A stretch of 64,000 nucleotides of DNA, taken from NCBI RefSeq assembly GCF_045037415.1, contig NZ_CP173438.1; one strand, written 5' to 3'. Below the pieces are notes generated by a model. The model was not told where the DNA came from. It saw only the letters and a program-made list of their open reading frames with translations, and did not search any database. This DNA is from Escherichia coli. Lineage in GTDB: Bacteria > Pseudomonadota > Gammaproteobacteria > Enterobacterales > Enterobacteriaceae. Made by a program: the position numbers and the translations under genes. Shown here piece after piece: positions 5,556 through 62,025 of the stretch (the stretch's first letter is position 1; the number at the start of each line of letters is the position of its first letter).

Positions 5556-6464
5556 TGCATCCTGAATAACTGGCGCGACAACGGGTTTGGCCGGGAAGAG
5601 ATATTTTCCCAACGTGACCAGTACCACCGCGAAGACAATTACGCCGAGCGCCAGCCATTCAATCTTCGACAGCGTTTCGCCACCCAGTCCCGTACCCAGC
5701 AAGACCGCGACCACCGGGTTAACGTAGGCGTAGCTGGTGGCGAGAGCCGGACTGACGTTGCGGATTAAATACATATAAGCGTTAATGGCGATAATCGAAC
5801 CAAACAGCGCCAGATAGCCGACCGCAAGGAAGCCTGAAAGGGAAGGGAGCGCCGTCAGTTTTTCACCCGCAATCATCGACGCAATCATTAACACCACGCC
5901 AGCCGCCAGCATCTCAATCGCACCCGCCATCATCCCTACAGGTAAGGTAATGCGCGAGCCATAAACCGAGCCAAACGCCCAGCTAATCGAGCCGATTAAA
6001 ATCAGAATCGCGCCCCATGGATTGCCGCTTAAGTTTCCACCGCTATTGAGCATGATGATTCCGGCAAGCCCAATGGCGATACCCACCCATTCCAGTTTGC
6101 GCGTTTTAATGCCAAACAGGCGGCTGAAGCACAGGGTAAAAAGGGGCACGGTTGCAACCACTACGGCGGCGATGCCGGAAGGAACATTTTGATGTTCGGC
6201 AACCGTCACCATGCCATTACCGACAGCCAGCAATAACAGGCCAATCAGCGCGGCATTGAGCAGCGGACGTAGCGGGGGAAGTTTGTGTCCGCGCAGTAGC
6301 AAAAATGCCAGCAATAAAATACCGGCTGCCAGGAATCGAACGCCCGCCATCATTAACGGAGGCCAGCTTTCCACGCCAATCCGAATGACAAAATAGGTTG
6401 AGCCCCAAATGATATACAACGCAAACAGCGCGCCAAAAAGCGGTAACAACTGGCGGAAACGCAT
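5544..6464 (-). CDS. yedA: EamA/DMT-family transporter YedA
   Basis: About ten hydrophobic helices, 306 aa, conserved position after vsr. Confidence 0.9.
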   Translation of the reverse strand: MRFRQLLPLFGALFALYIIWGSTYFVIRIGVESWPPLMMAGVRFLAAGILLLAFLLLRGHKLPPLRPLLNAALIGLLLLAVGNGMVTVAEHQNVPSGIAAVVVATVPLFTLCFSRLFGIKTRKLEWVGIAIGLAGIIMLNSGGNLSGNPWGAILILIGSISWAFGSVYGSRITLPVGMMAGAIEMLAAGVVLMIASMIAGEKLTALPSLSGFLAVGYLALFGSIIAINAYMYLIRNVSPALATSYAYVNPVVAVLLGTGLGGETLSKIEWLALGVIVFAVVLVTLGKYLFPAKPVVAPVIQDASSE

Positions 6465-6636: not shown

Positions 6637-7554
6637 ATGCTTTTGGCCGGGAGTAGTTTACTGACGTTGCTCGATGATATCGCCACACTGCTGGACGATA
6701 TCTCCGTGATGGGCAAACTGGCGGCGAAGAAAACCGCCGGTGTATTAGGGGATGACTTATCGCTCAATGCGCAACAAGTTTCAGGCGTGCGGGCCAACCG
6801 GGAACTTCCCGTGGTCTGGGGCGTGGCGAAAGGTTCGCTGATCAATAAAGTGATTCTGGTGCCGCTGGCGCTGATCATCAGTGCGTTTATCCCGTGGGCG
6901 ATTACGCCACTGTTGATGATTGGCGGCGCGTTTCTCTGCTTTGAAGGGGTAGAGAAAGTGCTGCATATGCTGGAGGCGCGTAAACATAAAGAAGATCCGG
7001 CGCAGAGTCAGCAGCGTCTGGAGAAGCTGGCGGCGCAGGATCCGCTGAAGTTTGAAAAGGACAAAATAAAAGGGGCGATTCGTACCGATTTTATATTGTC
7101 TGCGGAAATCGTCGCCATCACGCTGGGGATTGTGGCAGAAGCGCCGTTGCTTAATCAGGTGCTGGTGCTTTCAGGCATCGCGCTGGTAGTGACCGTGGGC
7201 GTCTACGGTCTGGTAGGGGTTATCGTTAAGATTGATGACCTGGGGTATTGGCTGGCGGAAAAATCCAGCGCGCTGATGCAGGCATTAGGTAAAGGGTTAT
7301 TGATCATTGCGCCCTGGTTGATGAAAGCGTTATCGATTGTCGGCACGCTGGCGATGTTCCTCGTCGGCGGCGGGATTGTGGTACATGGTATTGCGCCGTT
7401 GCATCACGCCATTGAACATTTCGCCGGGCAGCAAAGTGCAGTGGTGGCGATGATATTACCGACTGTTTTAAATCTGATTCTTGGATTTATCATCGGCGGC
7501 ATCGTGGTGCTGGGAGTGAAAGCCGTAGCGAAAATGCGCGGTCAGGCACATTAA
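6637..7554 (+). CDS. yedI: Inner membrane protein YedI
   Basis: 305-aa membrane protein in conserved context. Confidence 0.85.
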
Positions 7555-7632
7555 TACTCGCACAGGCTATTATGCAAAATTCGCCATCTTCAACTAAGGT
7601 GAACAAGTTTCACTCGAAAAAAGGAGGCGAGT

Positions 7633-7985: not shown

Positions 7986-10603
<2,618 letters not shown>

Positions 10604-10787: not shown

Positions 10788-11015
10788 TCAACGATTCACT
10801 TCAGAGACGCTGAAGTCATGAATATCCAGTTCGAAGGCATCCGCCAATTCACGCCATGTATGATATTCACGTCCATCGACGCTAACGTGTTCAGAATCGT
10901 TCTGGCTGCGATGAACTTCGCTTTCGCTAATTTCATTGATCGCCGCCAGCAGGGCATCGACATCGACGCTGACCTCACGTTTTGCGGTATCGCTGTACTC
11001 TTTTGCGGTTTTCAT
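10788..11015 (-). CDS. yodD: Stress-induced small protein YodD
   Basis: MKTAKEYSDTAKREVSVDVDALLAAINEISESEVHRSQND...; between dsrA and dsrB. Confidence 0.75.
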   Translation of the reverse strand: MKTAKEYSDTAKREVSVDVDALLAAINEISESEVHRSQNDSEHVSVDGREYHTWRELADAFELDIHDFSVSEVNR

Positions 11016-11087
11016 CATCTTTCCTCGCAACCGTTACTCTGTTGTTGCCGCCAGTCGTTAAGTCCGCCTGGCATCTCTTAAGTATAG

Positions 11088-11366
<279 letters not shown>

Positions 11367-12322: not shown

Positions 12323-13108
12323 TTATATTAATGGTAATTCACTAATAATATCAGCCAGCAAATTAAAAATTTCACTGAATAAATGTTCGCAAAAAGGCGC
12401 AATTAACGGCATTAATGCCGCCATTAAAGAGATGCCGACAGTCAGAGTTAATGGAAATCCAATAACAAAAATGGATAATTGCGGGGCCATACGATTCAGT
12501 AAACCTAATGCCAGATTCAGGGTCAGCAACAGAGTAATGAGCGGTAACGCCAGCATCAGCCCGTTAAGGAAAATCAAACTCCCTGCTTTGGTGAGTGCCA
12601 GAAACGCATTGCTGTTCAACGGTTCGCTACCAATCGGCAGGGTGTGAAAGGTATCGACCAGCAGTGAAATCAACCATAAATGACCGTTAAATGTCAGGAA
12701 CAGCAGTAATGCCAGCATATCCATGATGCGCGCTAAAACGGGCATATTGAGATGGCTGCCAGGATCGACAAATGTCGCAAATGACAGCCCCATTTGCAGA
12801 CCGATAATTTCGCCAGCGGTTCGCACAGCGGCAAAGGCAAATTGCATGGTAAAACCAAGCGCAATGCCGATCAGGATCTGCTGCACGGCCAGCCACAGAG
12901 CAAAGAACGAAAAAACAGGAACATCGTTGGCAGGTAATGATGGGGCAATGGCGAACGTGATCATCATTGCCAGACCCAGTTTTACCCGTTTCGGCACGCT
13001 GCGTTCGCTCAGAATTGGCGCGGTAGAAATGAGCGCCAGCACGCGCAGTAACGGCCAGAAGTACAGGCTTAACCAGGAAAGCCATTGATCGCTTGTTACC
13101 TGCATCAT
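12323..13108 (-). CDS. fliR: Flagellar export apparatus protein FliR
   Basis: 261-aa polytopic membrane protein, last gene of the fliL operon. Confidence 0.95.
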
Positions 13109-55317: not shown

Positions 55318-55539
55318 ATGTTTGGCGATAAACTGGAGTTACCACGGAACGGGCGGATAGTGCTCTATATTTCAGATTACAAAGTAACCCGGGCTGAGGT
55401 GTTGGAACCGGAAAAACATCTGGTCACGTTACCGGACATTATTGAGTTGTATAAGCGGGTCGGATATGTGGACTTGCATCGCGATGATGTTCCCGTTGAG
55501 TGTATGGAATGTGAACACCGGAGGTTTGAAGTTGATTGA
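55318..55539 (+). CDS. Hypothetical prophage protein
   Basis: 73-aa ORF with GGAGG-like RBS. Confidence 0.45.
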   Translation: MFGDKLELPRNGRIVLYISDYKVTRAEVLEPEKHLVTLPDIIELYKRVGYVDLHRDDVPVECMECEHRRFEVD

Positions 55540-55763
55540 ATTGACTTAGAAAAAGTCCGGGGCTATAGTTTCCGCGCAGCCGCAAAATCGGTTGCCGGGA
55601 TTGGCGTCCCGGATATCTAAGTGACGCATAGCCGCGTTAGCGGTTTTTTTATGTGTTAGGCACGGCCACATTCGCATTATGGTGGGCTGTGTGGGGGCTT
55701 CTGTGGAAGCGCCGGGTTCACTTAGCCGGTTACGCCAACCCTGCACAGCTCACCACCAGATGA

Positions 55764-56600
55764 TTGGCGTCGCTGGTGGTGATGAAAAAAACACTAAGTG
55801 AGGCCACTGCGATGACAGTCCAAATATCTGCGGAATCCCTTTCTCCGCTACATCATAACCAACTTCCCGTCATCACTACTGAATTGCTTGCCAGTTTGTA
55901 TGGCACGGAAGTAAATGGTATCCAGCAAAACTTCAAGCGCAACATCGCCAGATTTGTCGTAGGAAAGCATTTTTTTAAGCTGGAAGGTAATGAATTACGC
56001 GACTTCAAAAACAGACTGACAGATAGTCAGTCAGTTGCTAAACATACCCGATCCCTCATTCTCTGGACAGAACGCGGCGCAGCTCGCCATGCCAAAATGC
56101 TGGAAACAGAACAGGCCTGGGAAGTTTTCGAAAAGCTGGAAGATTGTTATTTTAGCCAGCGTCCAGAGAGGCGGAGTACAACTACCGATGACCGTACTCC
56201 CTTGCGTGATGCCGTTAATATACTGGTCGGCAAGAAAGGCATGATGTATCCCGATGCCTACACCATGATTCATCAACGCTTCGCCGTCTCTCACATAGAA
56301 CAACTGTCACAGACGCAAATGTTAGAGGCGATTGAATACATCCACTGCCTGCTACTCGATGAAAATCACCCAACCATTCCAGATTTTTCTTTTATCACCA
56401 CTATCAAAAATGGAAAAGTGACCGGGATGCGCCATGTTGCCAAAGGCGAACATCTGATGACCTTTGACGCTTTCAAAGAGATCGCTGAGCGGGCAGGGTA
56501 TCTGGTGATCCACAGCGACAATCTGCGAAGTATGACACTGGATAAATTGATGGTAATGGGGAAAAAGTCGGCTATATCCGTTGCTAATTCAGCATTTTGA
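55764..56600 (+). CDS. ORF6N/KilA-N-domain protein (antirepressor-like)
   Basis: N-terminal ...LPVITTELLASLYGTEVNGIQQNFKRNIARFVVGKHFFKLEGNELRDF... pattern; start codon uncertain. Confidence 0.6.
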   Translation: MASLVVMKKTLSEATAMTVQISAESLSPLHHNQLPVITTELLASLYGTEVNGIQQNFKRNIARFVVGKHFFKLEGNELRDFKNRLTDSQSVAKHTRSLILWTERGAARHAKMLETEQAWEVFEKLEDCYFSQRPERRSTTTDDRTPLRDAVNILVGKKGMMYPDAYTMIHQRFAVSHIEQLSQTQMLEAIEYIHCLLLDENHPTIPDFSFITTIKNGKVTGMRHVAKGEHLMTFDAFKEIAERAGYLVIHSDNLRSMTLDKLMVMGKKSAISVANSAF

Positions 56601-56628
56601 CAGGTTGTTTGGGGCGGAAATACTCTAT

Positions 56629-56696
56629 TTGCGCTTAAAAAGGTATTTGACCACGACCAGCACGAGACCGAATACCTCTGTCAAAGTACCGCCCAT
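56629..56696. repeat. Direct repeat copy 1 (68 bp): 3'-end remnant of a membrane-protein gene
   Basis: 63 of 68 positions identical to 60051-60118; minus strand encodes a 23-codon remnant MGGTLTEVFGLVLVVVKYLFKRK preceded by a stop. Confidence 0.85.
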
Positions 56697-56774
56697 ATAA
56701 AACAGTTACATATGCACTTGATGACTAAGCTGGCACCAGGTTAACACCTGGCGCCAGCTTGAAGGAGACTTCAG

Positions 56775-57698
56775 TTATTGGTTTCTGAGGAAAGCGATTC
56801 TTGAAAGGGTCATTTGCGTCTGGCAGTCGACCATTTTCTTGACTTCAGCATCTGTTCCCTGCATTGAAACTTTACCGCACATAGCATCCTTAGTTTTGAT
56901 CCACTGACGCTGAGAAGGCAGCAAATCTTTTTTCTTCGCCGGGGTTAACTTGCTCCAGACGGTACTCAAATCAGAGTCGGCATTCGCAAATGCCATTCGG
57001 GACTGATCAAGGTTGTCAGCTTTTTGCGGCTGAAGTTGTGCCTGTCTCTCTATTTGCTTCTCCGCCTCATACTTAGCCTGTTCTTGCGCCCTGAGTTGCA
57101 CCTGTTGTTCCGCTTCAATTTGACTCTGTTGGGCATCCTTAGCCTGCTGGATTTTCTGCTGCTCAACGATCGGGGTGATAATGGAAAGCGATGTCAGTAA
57201 AGCGGCGCCCACTGATATCGGATTATCAGTAGAGGTTTTTACAAAAACGTTTTTCTGATCGTCGGTCGCCTGCACGGTGTAGGTGATACGTTTTGAAAAG
57301 GCGTTTGCGTTGTTCTCCAAAAACAGGCTTTCCATTTGCTTATCGAGATTACGATTAAAATTCTTTCTGTAAGCATCTGAAAGCTGGACGTACTCGTTCG
57401 CAGATAGAGTCATCGTCACGGTCCCTTCACAAGTTTTCATTGTGCTGCCCGTGTCACTTGATGTTGTGGAGATCTCAGAGATGGCTAGTTTGATCTTGTC
57501 CAGTGTGCTTCGTTTGGTCTGATTAGTGACATCAGGGTATTTATCGACCTGTTCAGAGAGTCCTTCATAAGCAGATTTTTTTAATAAATCCATGAGAGCT
57601 GACTGGGTTATTTCCGAAGAACAACCGATCTCATCTTTTTTGTTATCACAGCCTGTAAGGGCAATGGCGAGTAAGAGTACTGAGTATTTTAATCTCAT
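56775..57698 (-). CDS. Prophage lipoprotein with LprI/DUF1311-like C-terminal region
   Basis: Lipobox LTGC after signal peptide MRLKYSVLLLAIA; Gln-rich coiled-coil middle; C-terminal two-Cys region ...WIKTKDAMCGK...MVDCQTQMTLSRIAFL. Confidence 0.65.
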   Translation of the reverse strand: MRLKYSVLLLAIALTGCDNKKDEIGCSSEITQSALMDLLKKSAYEGLSEQVDKYPDVTNQTKRSTLDKIKLAISEISTTSSDTGSTMKTCEGTVTMTLSANEYVQLSDAYRKNFNRNLDKQMESLFLENNANAFSKRITYTVQATDDQKNVFVKTSTDNPISVGAALLTSLSIITPIVEQQKIQQAKDAQQSQIEAEQQVQLRAQEQAKYEAEKQIERQAQLQPQKADNLDQSRMAFANADSDLSTVWSKLTPAKKKDLLPSQRQWIKTKDAMCGKVSMQGTDAEVKKMVDCQTQMTLSRIAFLRNQ

Positions 57699-58885
57699 GA
57701 ATTCCCTTTAGAGTAAGGATTGGTTTTTAAGACGCGGTCTGTAATCAGTCCCGAGAGCTACAGTAAACAACGCTGAGCACTGAACGCATCACAGGTAAGG
57801 TAAAAGGTGATATCGGCAAAGGCTGTGAAACCTTTAATTCAACAGATGGGAACGGTATGCGCAGGATCCTGTAACGACGCTCCCAAAACCGGAAACCTGT
57901 AAGGCATGTTTTCGCTGCTGAACTTAATATACGAACCTGCACTATCATGAACATATTTTATATCGTTATACCCCGAGTGATTGTGCCCGGCAATGGATAG
58001 TGTCCTGGAGGAACTATTTCTACTGTAAAAGGTAGATATTTAATTTCAGTTTTGAATTATTCCCTGCTGTTAATAACAATGGCTGTATATGGCACCGAGT
58101 AGGCATTTTTTCGCTTACTGAAGGGCAGCTGTGAGCGAGGAACAGACTTTCCCTACTTCGTTGAGAGTACACCTAGTACAATCAAGGCTAAATGATAAAA
58201 ATATACAAAATATCATATTTATGATATATATAATGGCATTAATCTTATTCTTGGATTACGTTGAAAGGGTAATATTATATTTGTGTAACATAGTTTAGAT
58301 AACAATGCCGTTATGGGGGGGGAAAGACATTTCAACATATTAGCTTTGTATCTAACGCTCATGTAGATCTCGATTTTGAACTTAAAGAACAATTATTTTT
58401 TAGAGAGCAAGGTATTTTTGGGGAACAAAAACATAAAGTAATGGAGAGAGGAGAATGTATCAAAAAATCATCGATTTAATTTAGATTGTCCGTATAGTTG
58501 GGGGTAAGTCGAATCGCTGGGCTACATGGAATATTGTGTCAAGTAAAAATATATTTCAATCTTGCAATAACCGATTGTTGAAAATAATGTCAAATCTTAA
58601 TGGTGAATGGGGAGAATATAATAAACATGAGTCGATATTATGCAAATGGATTTAAATATTTTATACCCGAAGACATAGGGTTTCGAGAGTTCGATGAGAC
58701 TACTTTGAATGCTTTCGAATTTGCTGGCTAAAACATATAGGTTATATCTTACATCTGTTTGTAATGGAGCGTAGATGCGACAAGCTACACCATAATAATC
58801 ATATTATGATATATTGTTAAGTTGTTATGGCATTAAATAAAATTATGTCATTTTGTTAACCAAGCAAGAATCAAAGGACTTTTAG

Positions 58886-59584
58886 ATGGGTACGGCATTA
58901 ATTTCAAGCTTTATTAGTGGTGCAATAGCTATAATCTCTATTGCTATATCTACTTATAATCAGAATAGAATAAACAAGCTCAATGAATCACTGGATGTAA
59001 GGAGAAAACATCAGTACTATATTGAACCGTTAATTCGCTCAGCTTCAGACTTACAAAGCCGTATTTATAATATATTAGAATTGGGGTTCATTGAAGAGTT
59101 TTATCATAATGGGAATAAGCGCCAACAAGATTATGTTATCAACAATACTGTTTTTCTTTTTTCCCAGTTTTTTGCATGGACAGAAGCTGCCCGCATAGAC
59201 ATTCAATACCTTAGCCTAGAAAAAAATAAAAAAATGAGGGAGTTTATTAGATTACAGAACAATATTAACTCATTAATCCAAACAGACGTCTTTGGTCAGT
59301 ATTTTATGTTTTTCATAGGAGAGCAGAGAGCTATTGCAGAAAAGATGCTGATATCAACAGATACTGGATTTGATTGCATAGGTTACGGCAGTTTCACAAA
59401 GGAAAATTGCTTTATCAATGAGCCATTTTTTTTAGATTTAAACAATGAAGTGATAAATATGACAAGAGATATCGGAATTTATAAAGAAAGGCTAATCAGA
59501 ATACAGCACGCGTTAATCGATTTAATTAATTTTCTTGATCCTGGCATGATTCGATTTGACGGAAAAAAATATGGAAAAATATAA
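58886..59584 (+). CDS. Hypothetical single-pass membrane protein (232 aa), AT-rich foreign-looking gene
   Basis: N-terminal TM helix MGTALISSFISGAIAIISIAISTY then ~200-aa soluble region with no recognisable motif; AAAGGA RBS. Confidence 0.6.
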   Translation: MGTALISSFISGAIAIISIAISTYNQNRINKLNESLDVRRKHQYYIEPLIRSASDLQSRIYNILELGFIEEFYHNGNKRQQDYVINNTVFLFSQFFAWTEAARIDIQYLSLEKNKKMREFIRLQNNINSLIQTDVFGQYFMFFIGEQRAIAEKMLISTDTGFDCIGYGSFTKENCFINEPFFLDLNNEVINMTRDIGIYKERLIRIQHALIDLINFLDPGMIRFDGKKYGKI

Positions 59585-59769
59585 CCCAGATGATTCGTAT
59601 CAAGGTAAGTTGCTATATGTATCAATTTAATTATGGTTGGGTGAAATTTATGTTAATAGTAGCGGAGGGTTAGTTAAAATATGCTCTCAGTGATTTTTGG
59701 ATAGTTCTTTTATTTATCATTGAAAGTAAATATGTATAGCTTCAAGATTTACAAGTGAATCTGTTTATT

Positions 59770-59801
59770 GACAGTCCGCTTATGGCACAGAGCGGACTGT
59801 C
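59770..59801 (+). terminator. Hairpin, possible terminator of the 232-aa gene
   Basis: Inverted repeat GACAGTCCGC...GCGGACTGTC; weak downstream T-run. Confidence 0.4.
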
Positions 59802-60046
59802 ATATTAAATTTGGCTCCACGCCATAGATGTGTCAGCTCATATCTTATCTAATACACACAATAACTTTCTCATTCTTGGAGAATTATTTTTTTAAGGGTA
59901 GGTGTTGACGTTAGAGCAAAAGAATGGTGATTTTTTTGATGTGTATTACGTTGGAACTGATGGGAATAACTATCTGTTTTCAACGCACTGCTAATTTATC
60001 AAGGCCCTTTGATCAGGGCCTTCGAAAGACTGTTGGACCGAGAGAG

Positions 60047-60652
60047 TTACTTGCGTTTAAAAAGGTATTTTGTCACGACCAGCACGAGGCCGAATACCTC
60101 TGTCAAAGTACCGCCCATGTACAACTGTAGTGTTAAATCCTCAAATTCCAGCTTACCTGCGCCGTCGGCAATAAATACACCATTCATTATCAGAAGTTGG
60201 AAAGCAAGGATAATCAGGAACCATTTCCCGTATCGTTTTTTTAGAGCGATTTCTGCTTCAAAATCTTTGTTGTTGAGTTGTTTGCGCTCATGCTCGGTAT
60301 CAAGTGAATTCACCTGTTTCACAGATGTGAACTCGGTCAAGATTTTACTCTCAGTACGGGTGACTTGTTGAGAGGGTGTAGCAGTTGGAATTCTTTTGCT
60401 AGACGCAGCTACAGCCATTTTGCGAGCTTCGGCAGCTCTTTTTCTGGCTATTCCGCGAATACGGACAGCCGTTTTTTTGGGGGCGTGCGAAACCTTTGGC
60501 TGAGGTGAAGCTTCGTCAGGAGACTGAACCGGAGTTTCATCGTCCTCCGGCTCAACCTCTTCTGCTAACTGACGGTGTAGGTTGAGGGAATCCTTCAGTC
60601 TGCGTGCTACTTCCTGTTTGAAACGGCTGTTAAAATCGTCATCCGATGGCAT
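60047..60652 (-). CDS. Hypothetical membrane protein: charged, disordered N-terminal region plus C-terminal two-TM hairpin
   Basis: WFLIILAFQLLIMNGVFIA and GGTLTEVFGLVLVVTKYLF hydrophobic segments; start 10 nt after the upstream stop. Confidence 0.65.
   Translation of the reverse strand: MPSDDDFNSRFKQEVARRLKDSLNLHRQLAEEVEPEDDETPVQSPDEASPQPKVSHAPKKTAVRIRGIARKRAAEARKMAVAASSKRIPTATPSQQVTRTESKILTEFTSVKQVNSLDTEHERKQLNNKDFEAEIALKKRYGKWFLIILAFQLLIMNGVFIADGAGKLEFEDLTLQLYMGGTLTEVFGLVLVVTKYLFKRK
60051..60118. repeat. Direct repeat copy 2 (68 bp): authentic 3' end of the 201-aa membrane-protein gene
   Basis: Encodes C-terminus ...QLYMGGTLTEVFGLVLVVTKYLFKRK of ORF 60047-60652. Confidence 0.85.
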
Positions 60653-60661
60653 TTTAAAGCG

Positions 60662-61150
60662 TTACCCCAACCTCAAGTTCTTTAAACGATAAGTCATCGC
60701 ATCGTCAGATACGCCAAAATAATGCGCCATTATATAACTTGGTTGACCGTCAGCGTGCAGTTTTCTGACCTCATCTACCGGCATCAGAAGTTCTGCTGCG
60801 AACTTGTTTGCAAAAATTTCATCAGGATGCGTTCCGGCGCTTGCGGTTTCGCCACGTAAATCAACGTACTCATATTCATCGCTATGCGATGCTTGCCGGG
60901 CGATGTAATGCCCCAACTCATGCCCACATGAAAAACGTTGACGAACTTTGTTGTCATCACTGTTTAGAAAGATCGCTGGATCTTGATCTTTTTGTTTAAT
61001 CAGTGCGCCAGAAACTTTCCCAGGAAGATCGGTAATAAAAACATCTAATCCCATGTCGTGAGCAATTTTCGCTGGATCAACAGGGAAACCACGCCCGCAC
61101 CAGAACGTGTCCAGCACTCGCCGGGCGTGCTCTCTTGGGTTGGTAGCCAT
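60662..61150 (-). CDS. ImmA/IrrE-family Zn-metallopeptidase (COG2856-like)
   Basis: HEXXH motif in SCGHELGHYIA; 162 aa; GGAGG RBS. Confidence 0.75.
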   Translation of the reverse strand: MATNPREHARRVLDTFWCGRGFPVDPAKIAHDMGLDVFITDLPGKVSGALIKQKDQDPAIFLNSDDNKVRQRFSCGHELGHYIARQASHSDEYEYVDLRGETASAGTHPDEIFANKFAAELLMPVDEVRKLHADGQPSYIMAHYFGVSDDAMTYRLKNLRLG

Positions 61151-61526
61151 AGCTCCTCCAGTTACTGCATTACGATTATTGGTTGAAATATAGACAGCAT
61201 GTTCCGTACCACATTCCTGTAAAAGTGCAAATTCTGCACTTCTGGTACGATATTAACTGTTAGTAGTAAAGTCTTCCAGATAAATCACTTTAAAATCTTG
61301 TGAATTGCTTGCTTTTTACGCTGTATTGTGGATGGTTCAATGTTTCCAGTAAAAACATACATGATAATCATGAGTTTAGTGTTTTTTTAGGCGTCTATAT
61401 GTTTCTGGAAAATACAGGTCTAACCTGATCTTATCGTTGAGATTTTTTGTACTCAGTATGCGTGAACGATTCGACCAGGTGACTGTGTACGTGAAGAAGA
61501 CCGCCCTTAATATTTTAAATGTGCAA

Positions 61527-61542
61527 CCCCTCAGAAGAGGGG
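61527..61542 (-). terminator. Hairpin downstream of the 77-aa gene, possible terminator
   Basis: CCCCTC-AGAA-GAGGGG followed on the minus strand by an A/T-rich tract. Confidence 0.4.
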
Positions 61543-61548
61543 CTACTC

Positions 61549-61782
61549 TCACTTCTGCAGTATCTCGCCAATACCTGCCAGATTCTCGTCCATCTTGTCA
61601 CCGTTTTCGATAAGGATGGAGTTGAGCCGATTCAGTTGCATAGCAATTTCAAGTTTGATTAAGGTATCCACCGATACACCAGTTTCTTTTGCTAACTTAG
61701 TAAGAGCCGCAGCTCGATTGGCTAAATTAAAATCATCGAACTCATAACGACTTCTGCACGGCTGGTTGCCTAACGTACCCAT
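61549..61782 (-). CDS. Hypothetical small prophage protein
   Basis: 77-aa ORF with GAGGA RBS. Confidence 0.5.
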   Translation of the reverse strand: MGTLGNQPCRSRYEFDDFNLANRAAALTKLAKETGVSVDTLIKLEIAMQLNRLNSILIENGDKMDENLAGIGEILQK

Positions 61783-62025
61783 AGTGATTCCTCATGATAT
61801 AAAGACCCAACAATATAAATTACCAGGCACATCATAAGATAGGGTTCCAGCCCATATTTTCAAATATTTGCAAGTATCACCGTTCAGTCTAAAAAGTTGG
61901 ATGATGATTTAACGAGCCATAACAAAACCCTGCCTCGGAGGTTTTTTCTTTTTTATAGAACTCAGCGGCGTGAAAACGAATAATAAATTGTGCAAATAGT
62001 GCAGTTTTTATTATTCGAGGTAATT

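Follow-up and report, generated by a model that had tools for sequence, protein, structure and literature searches.

A diversity hotspot with a gene-end scar in a lambdoid prophage of Escherichia coli ST131

INTRODUCTION

Lambdoid phages carry extra genes, known as morons, at novel joints. In the model of Hendrix and Juhala these genes have a deviant base composition, and the non-homologous joins that brought them in leave gene fragments as scars. Partial genes also occur at icd, where e14 and phage 21 integrate with a replacement 3′ end and leave a diverged duplicate of the gene end. Here we analyse a locus in which a gene fragment and the intact gene lie close together. It is located in a stretch of 64,000 nt of Escherichia coli DNA (contig NZ_CP173438.1 of assembly GCF_045037415.1, hereafter the window), where the 3′ end of a gene for a 201-aa membrane protein is present twice in direct orientation. 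The 3.4 kb in question carries a lipoprotein gene and a gene for a 232-aa protein.

Hotspots for defence genes have been described in prophages and satellites (PMC9122126, PMC9519451), and Vassallo et al. described fun as a second defence-enriched locus of P2-like phages (PMC9519451). A transmembrane (TM) protein is associated with the reverse transcriptase (RT)-nitrilases UG1 (defence-associated reverse transcriptase type 1, DRT1) and UG5 (PMC9226505).

A preliminary description of the window took the whole interval between the repeats for a single AT-rich cassette, inserted or swapped by recombination at a conserved gene end. We find in it one more prophage hotspot that bears a mosaic scar, ordinary phage mosaicism with some instructive details. 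Taken as a whole it is probably best explained by a three-layer history of a swap-prone accessory-gene slot in a lambdoid prophage family.

RESULTS

The repeat pair and the prophage that carries it

The window contains a lambdoid prophage of E. coli sequence type 131 (ST131). The 5.5 kb around the locus are 100% identical to ST131 chromosomes such as EC958 and JJ1886, and were found at ≥80% coverage in 402 of the 5426 complete genomes that form our E. coli survey set. In EC958 the prophage is integrated beside tRNA-Leu/pgsA, and the slot lies between the replication genes (the helicase/ORF6N region) and the gene of the Q antiterminator. The two copies of the gene end are placed as follows.

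56626-56706, minus strand: repeat copy 1, a pseudogene scar consisting of the orphaned 3′ end, residues ~175-201, of an allele related to the 201-aa gene; a stop codon lies just upstream
60048-60128, minus strand: repeat copy 2, the functional 3′ end of the 201-aa gene, from sequence comparison
60047-60652, minus strand: gene of the 201-aa protein (phrog_5346; family alignment)

The identity reported earlier between 56629-56696 and 60051-60118, 63 of 68 positions, is exact, and ungapped similarity extends it to 81 nt (56626-56706 and 60048-60128, 72/81 = 89%). The core is perfect over 29 nt, with the sequence CCGAATACCTCTGTCAAAGTACCGCCCAT. Copy 2 was correctly taken as the real 3′ end of the 201-aa gene, the open reading frame (ORF) running from 60047 to 60652 on the minus strand. 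Copy 1 was likewise correctly seen as an orphan remnant behind a stop. Read on the minus strand it gives LFYMGGTLTEVFGLVLVVVKYLFKRK, with a stop at either end; it comprises 23 codons from its ATG, and an in-frame TAA is located three codons upstream. When the 60-nt core of copy 1 was compared with the window allowing ≤3 mismatches it matched itself alone (shuffled sequences lead one to expect 0), and the tail peptide, searched by tblastn over the 64 kb, is present in exactly two copies.

Within the 23 codons the two copies differ mostly by synonymous changes, together with one altered codon, T194V; T194 is retained by copy 1 of the relatives. This pattern indicates that copy 1 comes from a related functional allele and not from duplication in situ. 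In three related loci (L003, L004 and L008) copy 1 has a 1-nt deletion. It is therefore a decaying scar that is not under coding selection. Its inner end adjoins an unrelated hairpin, with no further homology beyond.

The 81-nt repeat was found in 455 of the 5426 genomes, in a maximum of three places each and always within this prophage family. The reading as a dispersed repeat is therefore ruled out. The preliminary description had named a widespread dispersed element as one outcome that would speak against it and the same gene content without the repeat as another; the first did not occur and the second was found in none of the relatives. The repeats are gene sequence of 89% identity, and not a target-site duplication.

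The 201-aa gene and its peptidase partner

The 201-aa protein has a conserved N-terminal helix, a variable linker, two predicted C-terminal TM helices and a near-invariant tail, LTLQLYMGGTLTEVFGLVLVVTKYLFKRK. In the family as a whole the N-terminal half is variable and the two predicted TM helices make up the C-terminal ~90 residues, of which the last 29 are almost invariant between Escherichia, Klebsiella, Enterobacter, Salmonella, Serratia, Cronobacter and Plesiomonas in the family alignment. Conservation of the tail across species does not extend to its nucleotide sequence. The family is small and limited to Enterobacterales; the 201-aa protein has no match in Pfam or NCBIfam, nor by tblastn in 50,697 phage records. 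Its gene is always preceded by that of a peptidase, and is followed by a short non-coding region.

60662-61150, minus strand: gene of a 162-aa ImmA/IrrE (Peptidase_M78) metallopeptidase, the constant upstream partner of the 201-aa gene (PADLOC capP, E 2.4e-25; phrog_87)
59872-60046, minus strand: region 3′ of the 201-aa gene, with a hairpin at 60001-60022; duplicated together with the tail in L005

The same pair occurs in other prophages of E. coli and Klebsiella. Given the near-invariant tail and the constant partner, no part of this mobile two-gene module is better conserved than the repeated sequence. In L038-L046, from prophages of E. coli and Klebsiella oxytoca, the pair of ImmA/IrrE and two-TM genes is located at the integrase end, convergent with int and sharing a terminator with it. 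The pair is thus seen as a mobile module, in which the partner of the peptidase is not a helix-turn-helix repressor.

These integrase-adjacent pairs bear on a reading of the repeats as attL- and attR-like duplications, left by a site-specific integrative element that used the end of the 201-aa gene as its target, carried a replacement end and later lost its integrase. Elements of this kind are classically recognised by a diverged 3′-end duplicate in which most differences are synonymous, as is generally known from e14 and phage 21 at icd, and the pairs do lie within 25-35 nt of the 3′ end of an integrase gene. However, no second copy of the tail was found within 8 kb of these pairs in the E. 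coli and Klebsiella prophages; the tail is single there, and a plain terminator separates the convergent genes, as is normal. Moreover, no integrase or excisionase is present between or beside the repeats in the window, and homology ends where the remnant meets the unrelated hairpin. The reading as attachment sites is rejected on these grounds, and we consider it very improbable.

Further remnants of the module are found among the relatives. L005 (strain LCP30S3_I5) has two orphan tails, at 5792-6081 and 10936-11177, comprising residues 177-201 and 174-201. Each retains 150-240 nt of the downstream region of the gene, an intact 201-aa or ImmA gene is absent, and the codon at which the tails are truncated is nearly that of copy 1 in the window. 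In L004 (APEC20/16, 8277-8648) the 201-aa gene is annotated as 123 aa. The full-length gene is nonetheless 97.7% identical in DNA sequence, with tblastn matches in two frames, so that it is frameshifted in APEC20/16.

The segment between the repeats is composite

The gene layout between the copies is as originally described, namely a lipoprotein gene, 1187 nt of intergenic DNA and the gene of the 232-aa protein. The left part contains the following features.

56729-56758, no strand assigned: hairpin with a 13-bp stem between the scar and the 3′ end of the LprI gene, read from the sequence and kept in L003-L005; possibly a bidirectional terminator
56775-57698, minus strand: gene of a 307-aa lipoprotein of the LprI family (lysozyme inhibitor, DUF1311) with the lipobox LTGC (RefSeq product name; phrog_5094), kept by most related prophages
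57699-58117, no strand assigned: upstream region of LprI with 42% G+C (GC), common to the relatives, which stop matching at 58099-58134

The interval is not AT-rich throughout. From 56707 to 58127 the GC content is 44.3%, like that of the flanks (46-49%), and only 58128-59867 is AT-rich, at 32.2%. The intergenic DNA, described as ~1.2 kb of AT-rich noncoding sequence, is itself divided, with 429 nt at 42% and 758 nt at 32%. Comparison of composition inside and outside the repeats therefore reveals a deviation in the AT-rich part alone.

Relatives with a backbone identity of 93-97% retain ORF6N or another left neighbour, copy 1, the hairpin, LprI and ~400 nt upstream of LprI. The LprI gene is 94-97% identical in L003, L004, L005, L008 and L009. 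Their cargo diverges from the window starting at 58099-58134, ~1.4 kb inside copy 1. In most relatives, then, ~1.4 kb separate copy 1 from the left edge of the variable cargo, and ~0.2 kb separate its right edge from copy 2. Alternative cargo had been expected in related prophages, and at least six cargo sets are found across them. Apart from that of the window, these include:

L004, L008 and L009 (S42, GF43 and APEC20/16, the last being L004): a GIY-YIG set
L003 and L010 (CFSAN061769 and E24377A): HNH, PD-T4-3 and other genes
L005 (LCP30S3_I5): a DUF262 NsnA-like protein
L047 and L029 (ECO21 and an IMG/VR contig): a methyltransferase and a SMEK protein
L022: four other genes that replace most of LprI and the AT-rich module, both sides being 99% identical to the window

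The matches to defence genes include PD-T4-3 (E 5.7e-138) and an NsnA/PD-T4-2_A-like protein (E 4.6e-41). The slot thus has conserved flanks and interchangeable cargo that includes validated and candidate defence genes, and is a defence-type diversity hotspot for accessory genes, most of them probably anti-phage.

In L047 the LprI gene is missing and 12 nt of copy 1 are left, directly against an inverted border element (7488-7575). At 12627-12848 of the same locus a 147-nt deletion fuses 59958 to 60105 in the tail region. The tail copies have thus been rearranged repeatedly.

The AT-rich module is shared with the Z/fun slot of P2-like phages

The right part of the interval has its own borders and its own origin.

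58128-59856, plus strand: AT-rich one-gene module with 32% GC, common to the Z/fun slot of P2-like phages
58886-59584, plus strand: gene of the 232-aa 'lysogenic protein', an N-terminal TM helix and a helical bundle (PADLOC RTasTM, E 1.8e-5; AlphaFold2 predicted local distance difference test score, pLDDT, 87)

Two P2-type sequences match the module at 86-87% identity, namely AJ512683 ('P2-EC58 proviral Z-region, ORF1') and a P2-like prophage in strain EC-107. There it is flanked by the tail sheath gene FI and the tail-fibre assembly gene G, the position of the Z/fun slot. The coding part is ~95% identical to the P2-type version, and the 760 nt upstream are ~80% identical with insertions and deletions. 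Among the complete E. coli genomes the lambdoid context is restricted to a near-clonal prophage of ST131 type (408 genomes at ≥99% identity), and the P2 context is found in about a dozen. The locus of the window is not itself a Z/fun slot, which lies between G and FI of a P2-like phage; its host is a lambdoid prophage.

The module has several properties of a moron. It is absent from close relatives, with other cargo in L003-L005, L008-L010, L022, L029 and L047; its composition is deviant (32% GC against 44-49% in the flanks); and a terminator-like hairpin lies at 59769-59802. What had been described as one cassette is thus two segments, and a single repeat-bounded insertion does not describe the locus, copy 1 and LprI being conserved at 94-97% beside differing cargo. 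The idea that repeats from a conserved gene end recombine here does hold, in the form of a precise deletion of 3.4 kb that is presented below.

Two variants of the module were observed within ST131. A G8 tract at 58315-58322 in the AT-rich upstream region is the sole difference from SK1144 (G9) over 2.3 kb; the tract is 1 nt longer in about half of the otherwise identical ST131 genomes listed, which could be due to phase variation or to homopolymer sequencing error. In a few ST131 genomes, such as S9 and MSB1_4E (hits H83 and H115 to 57950-60046), the insertion sequence (IS) IS1 interrupts the module, and the matching pieces are ~780 bp further apart.

A hairpin element borders both slots

A hairpin element of ~100 nt is present at the right end of the AT-rich module as a full copy and at the left end as a partial one.

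59764-59871, plus strand: full copy of the element at the right border of the slot, containing the hairpin 59769-59802 (nhmmer, E 9e-29)
58118-58159, minus strand: partial inverted copy, the inner ~40 nt, at the left border of the AT-rich module (nhmmer, E 1.2e-5)

The outer, diverged part of the left copy (~58083-58117) was matched by eye only. For P2-EC30, 46, 48, 53, 58 and 67 the GenBank feature annotation of the Z region gives the element of the right copy the name 'left inverted repeat'. Many P2-like phages, P2 and Wphi among them, have the element 3′ of gene G, and an inverted copy is present on the other side of the P2 slot. On the left of the module the switch from lambdoid-type to P2-type sequence falls within the element copy, as seen in the alignment with the relatives and P2-EC58. 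On the right the P2 homology continues to 59856, and lambdoid relatives with other cargo are homologous from 59774/59775 on in at least eight loci. Both junctions thus appear to lie inside copies of the element, which fits an exchange of cargo by crossover in shared border sequence.

Similar sequences are present in 2100 places in 1785 of the 5426 E. coli genomes. One example neighbours a small foreign gene near nanQ, and another adjoins an accessory gene close to the integrase of a different prophage. In IMG/VR contigs, FDAARGOS_1297 and P2-like phages the element forms inverted pairs, spaced by 1.5-2.2 kb, on either side of accessory genes, often a single one. Element copies lie between successive cargo genes in E24377A and L022, and the pattern of a gene followed by the hairpin element is seen in L010 and L022. 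Further copies were noted in L020 (2994-3093), L021 (2994-3094 and 1318-1397) and L010 (2929-7024).

Such a distribution raises the possibility that the AT-rich module is a non-autonomous, transposon-like or cassette unit whose ~100-nt inverted ends are recognised by a recombinase in trans. Several observations suggest this: accessory genes are flanked by inverted pairs in P2-like phages, in other prophages and in IMG/VR contigs; the element is also found at chromosomal sites beside small foreign genes; the join between cargo and element falls on one and the same base in eight loci or more; and left and right inverted repeats are annotated in the six P2-EC records. Yet no recombinase or transposase linked to the element was found, no target-site duplications were identified, and in P2-like phages the element is a constant part of the slot backbone whatever the cargo, as expected for crossover in flanking homology. 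The consensus fold conserves a single 6-bp stem with little covariation, which is what a terminator would give, and no claim for a structured RNA is made. At the locus itself no transposase is present, and it does not qualify as a transposon, an IS or a miniature inverted-repeat transposable element. We think this reading rather unlikely, and on account of the one conserved stem and the lack of a linked recombinase a dedicated site-specific mechanism is regarded as a minority possibility.

The element copy near nanQ follows a 101-aa ORF annotated as 'transposase' (L020, 2704-3009; strain H15, between yhcG′ and nanQ). The annotation has no support from Pfam or NCBIfam, and the ORF is probably a mis-annotated small foreign gene.

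In its boldest form the idea would make the element a dedicated recombination site, loosely like integron attC, that moves single-gene defence cassettes between unrelated phage families (the Z/fun slot of P2-like myoviruses, lambdoid hotspots) and chromosomal sites. The 232-aa gene of ST131 would then be one such cassette, caught in two phage families. There is perhaps a small chance that this is so, and if true it would explain the movement of defence genes between phage families. No integron integrase was found at any locus examined, no genome-wide search having been made.

A natural precise deletion

A synthetic junction, in which copy 1 is joined to the sequence that follows copy 2, was searched against the complete genomes. 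It matched in one piece over 100% of its length in GPEC172, one of 445 matching complete genomes. The prophage of GPEC172 is the same, with neighbouring protein accessions identical to those of the ST131 prophage; the 3.4 kb are gone and the 201-aa gene is intact. Its junction is chimeric, copy-1-like up to the 29-nt core and copy-2-like thereafter, placing the crossover inside the core. At least 24 other contigs, with the same context in every case, code for the hybrid protein (WP_134241516.1), and the deletion is thus not an artefact of assembly.

The preliminary description had looked to empty sites for evidence of insertion, and this single form is what was found. It allows the whole 3.4 kb to be seen as one cassette, integrated by Campbell-type crossover of a circular donor into the tail of an intact 201-aa gene, with GPEC172 as the ancestral empty site. 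The tail is the best-conserved part of the protein family, the core of 29 nt is long enough for RecA or Red recombination, and the empty form is the exact reciprocal, with a junction that is copy-1-like outside and copy-2-like inside. Several observations argue against this. Copy 1 and LprI occur in relatives of 94-97% identity that lack the AT-rich part and have other cargo. Base composition and P2 homology divide the segment in two. Just one of the 445 genomes has the empty form, and its prophage is 99.8-99.9% identical to the occupied one. The tail nucleotides are not conserved across species, so the tail is not a general landing pad. Insertion of the whole as one cassette is accordingly judged unlikely. 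Since the flanks of the GPEC172 type are 99.8-99.9% identical to the window, while the arrangement of copy 1 and LprI is common to relatives of 93-97% identity, the parsimonious reading is that the empty form would be a secondary deletion and not the ancestral state.

The 232-aa cargo protein

The 232-aa protein matches the RTasTM models PDLC03799 and PDLC03013 (E 1.8e-5), as do the ten other family members tested (E down to 1e-10), which makes 11 of 11. RTasTM appears to be the membrane protein associated with the UG1 (DRT1) and UG5 RT-nitrilases. In the AlphaFold model (pLDDT 87) the N-terminal TM helix runs into the helical bundle. The family comprises at least 290 proteins of ~230-260 aa from Proteobacteria and metagenomes. 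Distant homologues are single genes located beside SIR2-HerA, ORC/Cdc6-like ATPase or toxin-antitoxin genes, and no gene for an RT or RT-nitrilase is present at the locus or next to the distant homologues examined. On sequence grounds the protein is thus a solo homologue of the DRT1/UG5 RT-associated TM protein.

It has no match in Pfam or NCBIfam, a profile sequence search of the PDB was empty, and tblastn against the 50,697 phage records found P2-EC58 only. A literature search for WP_000536231 gave no match. Its homology and its location in two hotspots of defence genes make the 232-aa protein a candidate membrane effector of abortive infection or of superinfection exclusion. Together with the LprI lipoprotein, this membrane-anchored protein most likely serves to protect the lysogen, which would express both genes.

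The left-hand setting

To the left of the scar lie a regulatory RNA and an antirepressor gene.

55563-55760, plus strand: isrK/C4-type antisense RNA with a1b1 targets (Rfam isrK 80 bits, C4 75 bits and c4-a1b1 53 bits, all above the gathering scores)
55764-56600, plus strand: gene of an ORF6N-domain antirepressor, the left backbone neighbour of the scar (phrog_4792 anti-repressor, E 1.5e-165; RefSeq annotation)

The start of the ORF6N gene in RefSeq corresponds to 55812. With isrK/C4/a1b1 directly 5′ of it, this is an antisense-controlled antirepressor module like immI of P1/P7, in a lambdoid prophage. When 55500-62000 was searched with Rfam at E ≤ 1, isrK/C4 alone was found, and the AT-rich noncoding DNA and the repeats had no match. 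A scan for tRNA and tmRNA genes found none.

DISCUSSION

The history that we propose, and consider probable, has three layers. In the first, an early non-homologous join would have brought the hairpin, the LprI gene and the variable slot into or beside the module of ImmA/IrrE and two-TM genes. The last ~27 codons of one allele would have been orphaned as copy 1, and a second, slightly different allele would have provided the intact gene with copy 2. In the second layer the 232-aa gene, with ~760 nt upstream and its terminator, may have been exchanged as a one-gene moron between the lambdoid slot and the Z/fun slot of P2-like phages, with both crossovers inside the inverted copies of the ~100-nt hairpin element that borders the two slots. 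In the third, homologous recombination between the tails, probably by RecA or a phage recombinase, can delete 3.4 kb and rebuild an intact hybrid gene, as it did in GPEC172; this is possible because the tails are direct repeats with a perfect core of 29 nt.

A number of points weigh against parts of this history. The proposed order of events is read by parsimony from ~10 relatives, and a founding insertion of Campbell type, being the exact reverse of the observed deletion, is formally possible. The left border copy is partial, with its outer half matched by eye, and the nhmmer profile that finds it includes the homologous P2 copy. Relatives of types B and D have weak copies of the element at best, so that it is not a universal border of cargo. 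As to function, the 232-aa and LprI genes are candidates for expression in the lysogen and for a role in defence. A promoter scan gave 13 sites against 11.5 expected in shuffled sequences, which is chance level, and a Foldseek search of the PDB with the AlphaFold model of the 232-aa protein gave non-significant matches to helical bundles only, which are uninformative.

Current concepts are unchanged by this locus, as hotspots, morons and mosaic scars are already well known. It does add some useful details, namely a precise deletion mediated by the repeat, a module shared by P2-like and lambdoid phages via a common border element, and a defence candidate in ST131. It shows how a prophage of the pandemic ST131 gained its cargo, and how cargo can be lost cleanly by a deletion that rebuilds an intact gene. 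It also draws attention to a widely distributed single-gene family as a candidate for defence, present in recognised hotspots of two unrelated phage families, and to a low-copy hairpin element common to the borders of both. No description of the lambdoid slot and its border sequences was found in the searchable literature.

Comparison with the described systems places the locus as follows. The 232-aa protein resembles the TM protein of UG1 (DRT type 1) and UG5 in its similar size, its N-terminal TM helix and a remote, consistent homology over most of the length; unlike in those systems it is encoded alone, with an RT or nitrilase gene not nearby. With e14 and phage 21 at icd the locus shares an intact gene whose 3′ end recurs, in diverged form and direct orientation, at a distance of a few kb. 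It differs from them in having no integrase, and its duplicate marks the edge of a prophage-internal hotspot rather than of an element integrated in the chromosome. The same 232-aa gene and upstream DNA (86-87%), the same right inverted-repeat element and AT-rich foreign cargo are found in the P2 Z/fun slot (GenBank AJ512676-AJ512685). The present slot differs in lying between the replication genes and Q of a lambdoid prophage, not between G and FI, and in the left repeat, which is partly retained.

The locus also has the fixed backbone borders and the interchangeable cargo of prophage and satellite defence hotspots, with PD-T4-3, nuclease or DUF262 proteins, while the cargo of the window, unlike that of the described hotspots, is not a named system. 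It agrees with morons in its deviant composition, its own terminator-like hairpin, some genes being opposite to the phage operon, its absence from close relatives and its gene-fragment scar. It departs from the usual mosaic joint in that the scar forms a direct repeat with an intact gene, and that a natural, precise deletion through this repeat is documented.

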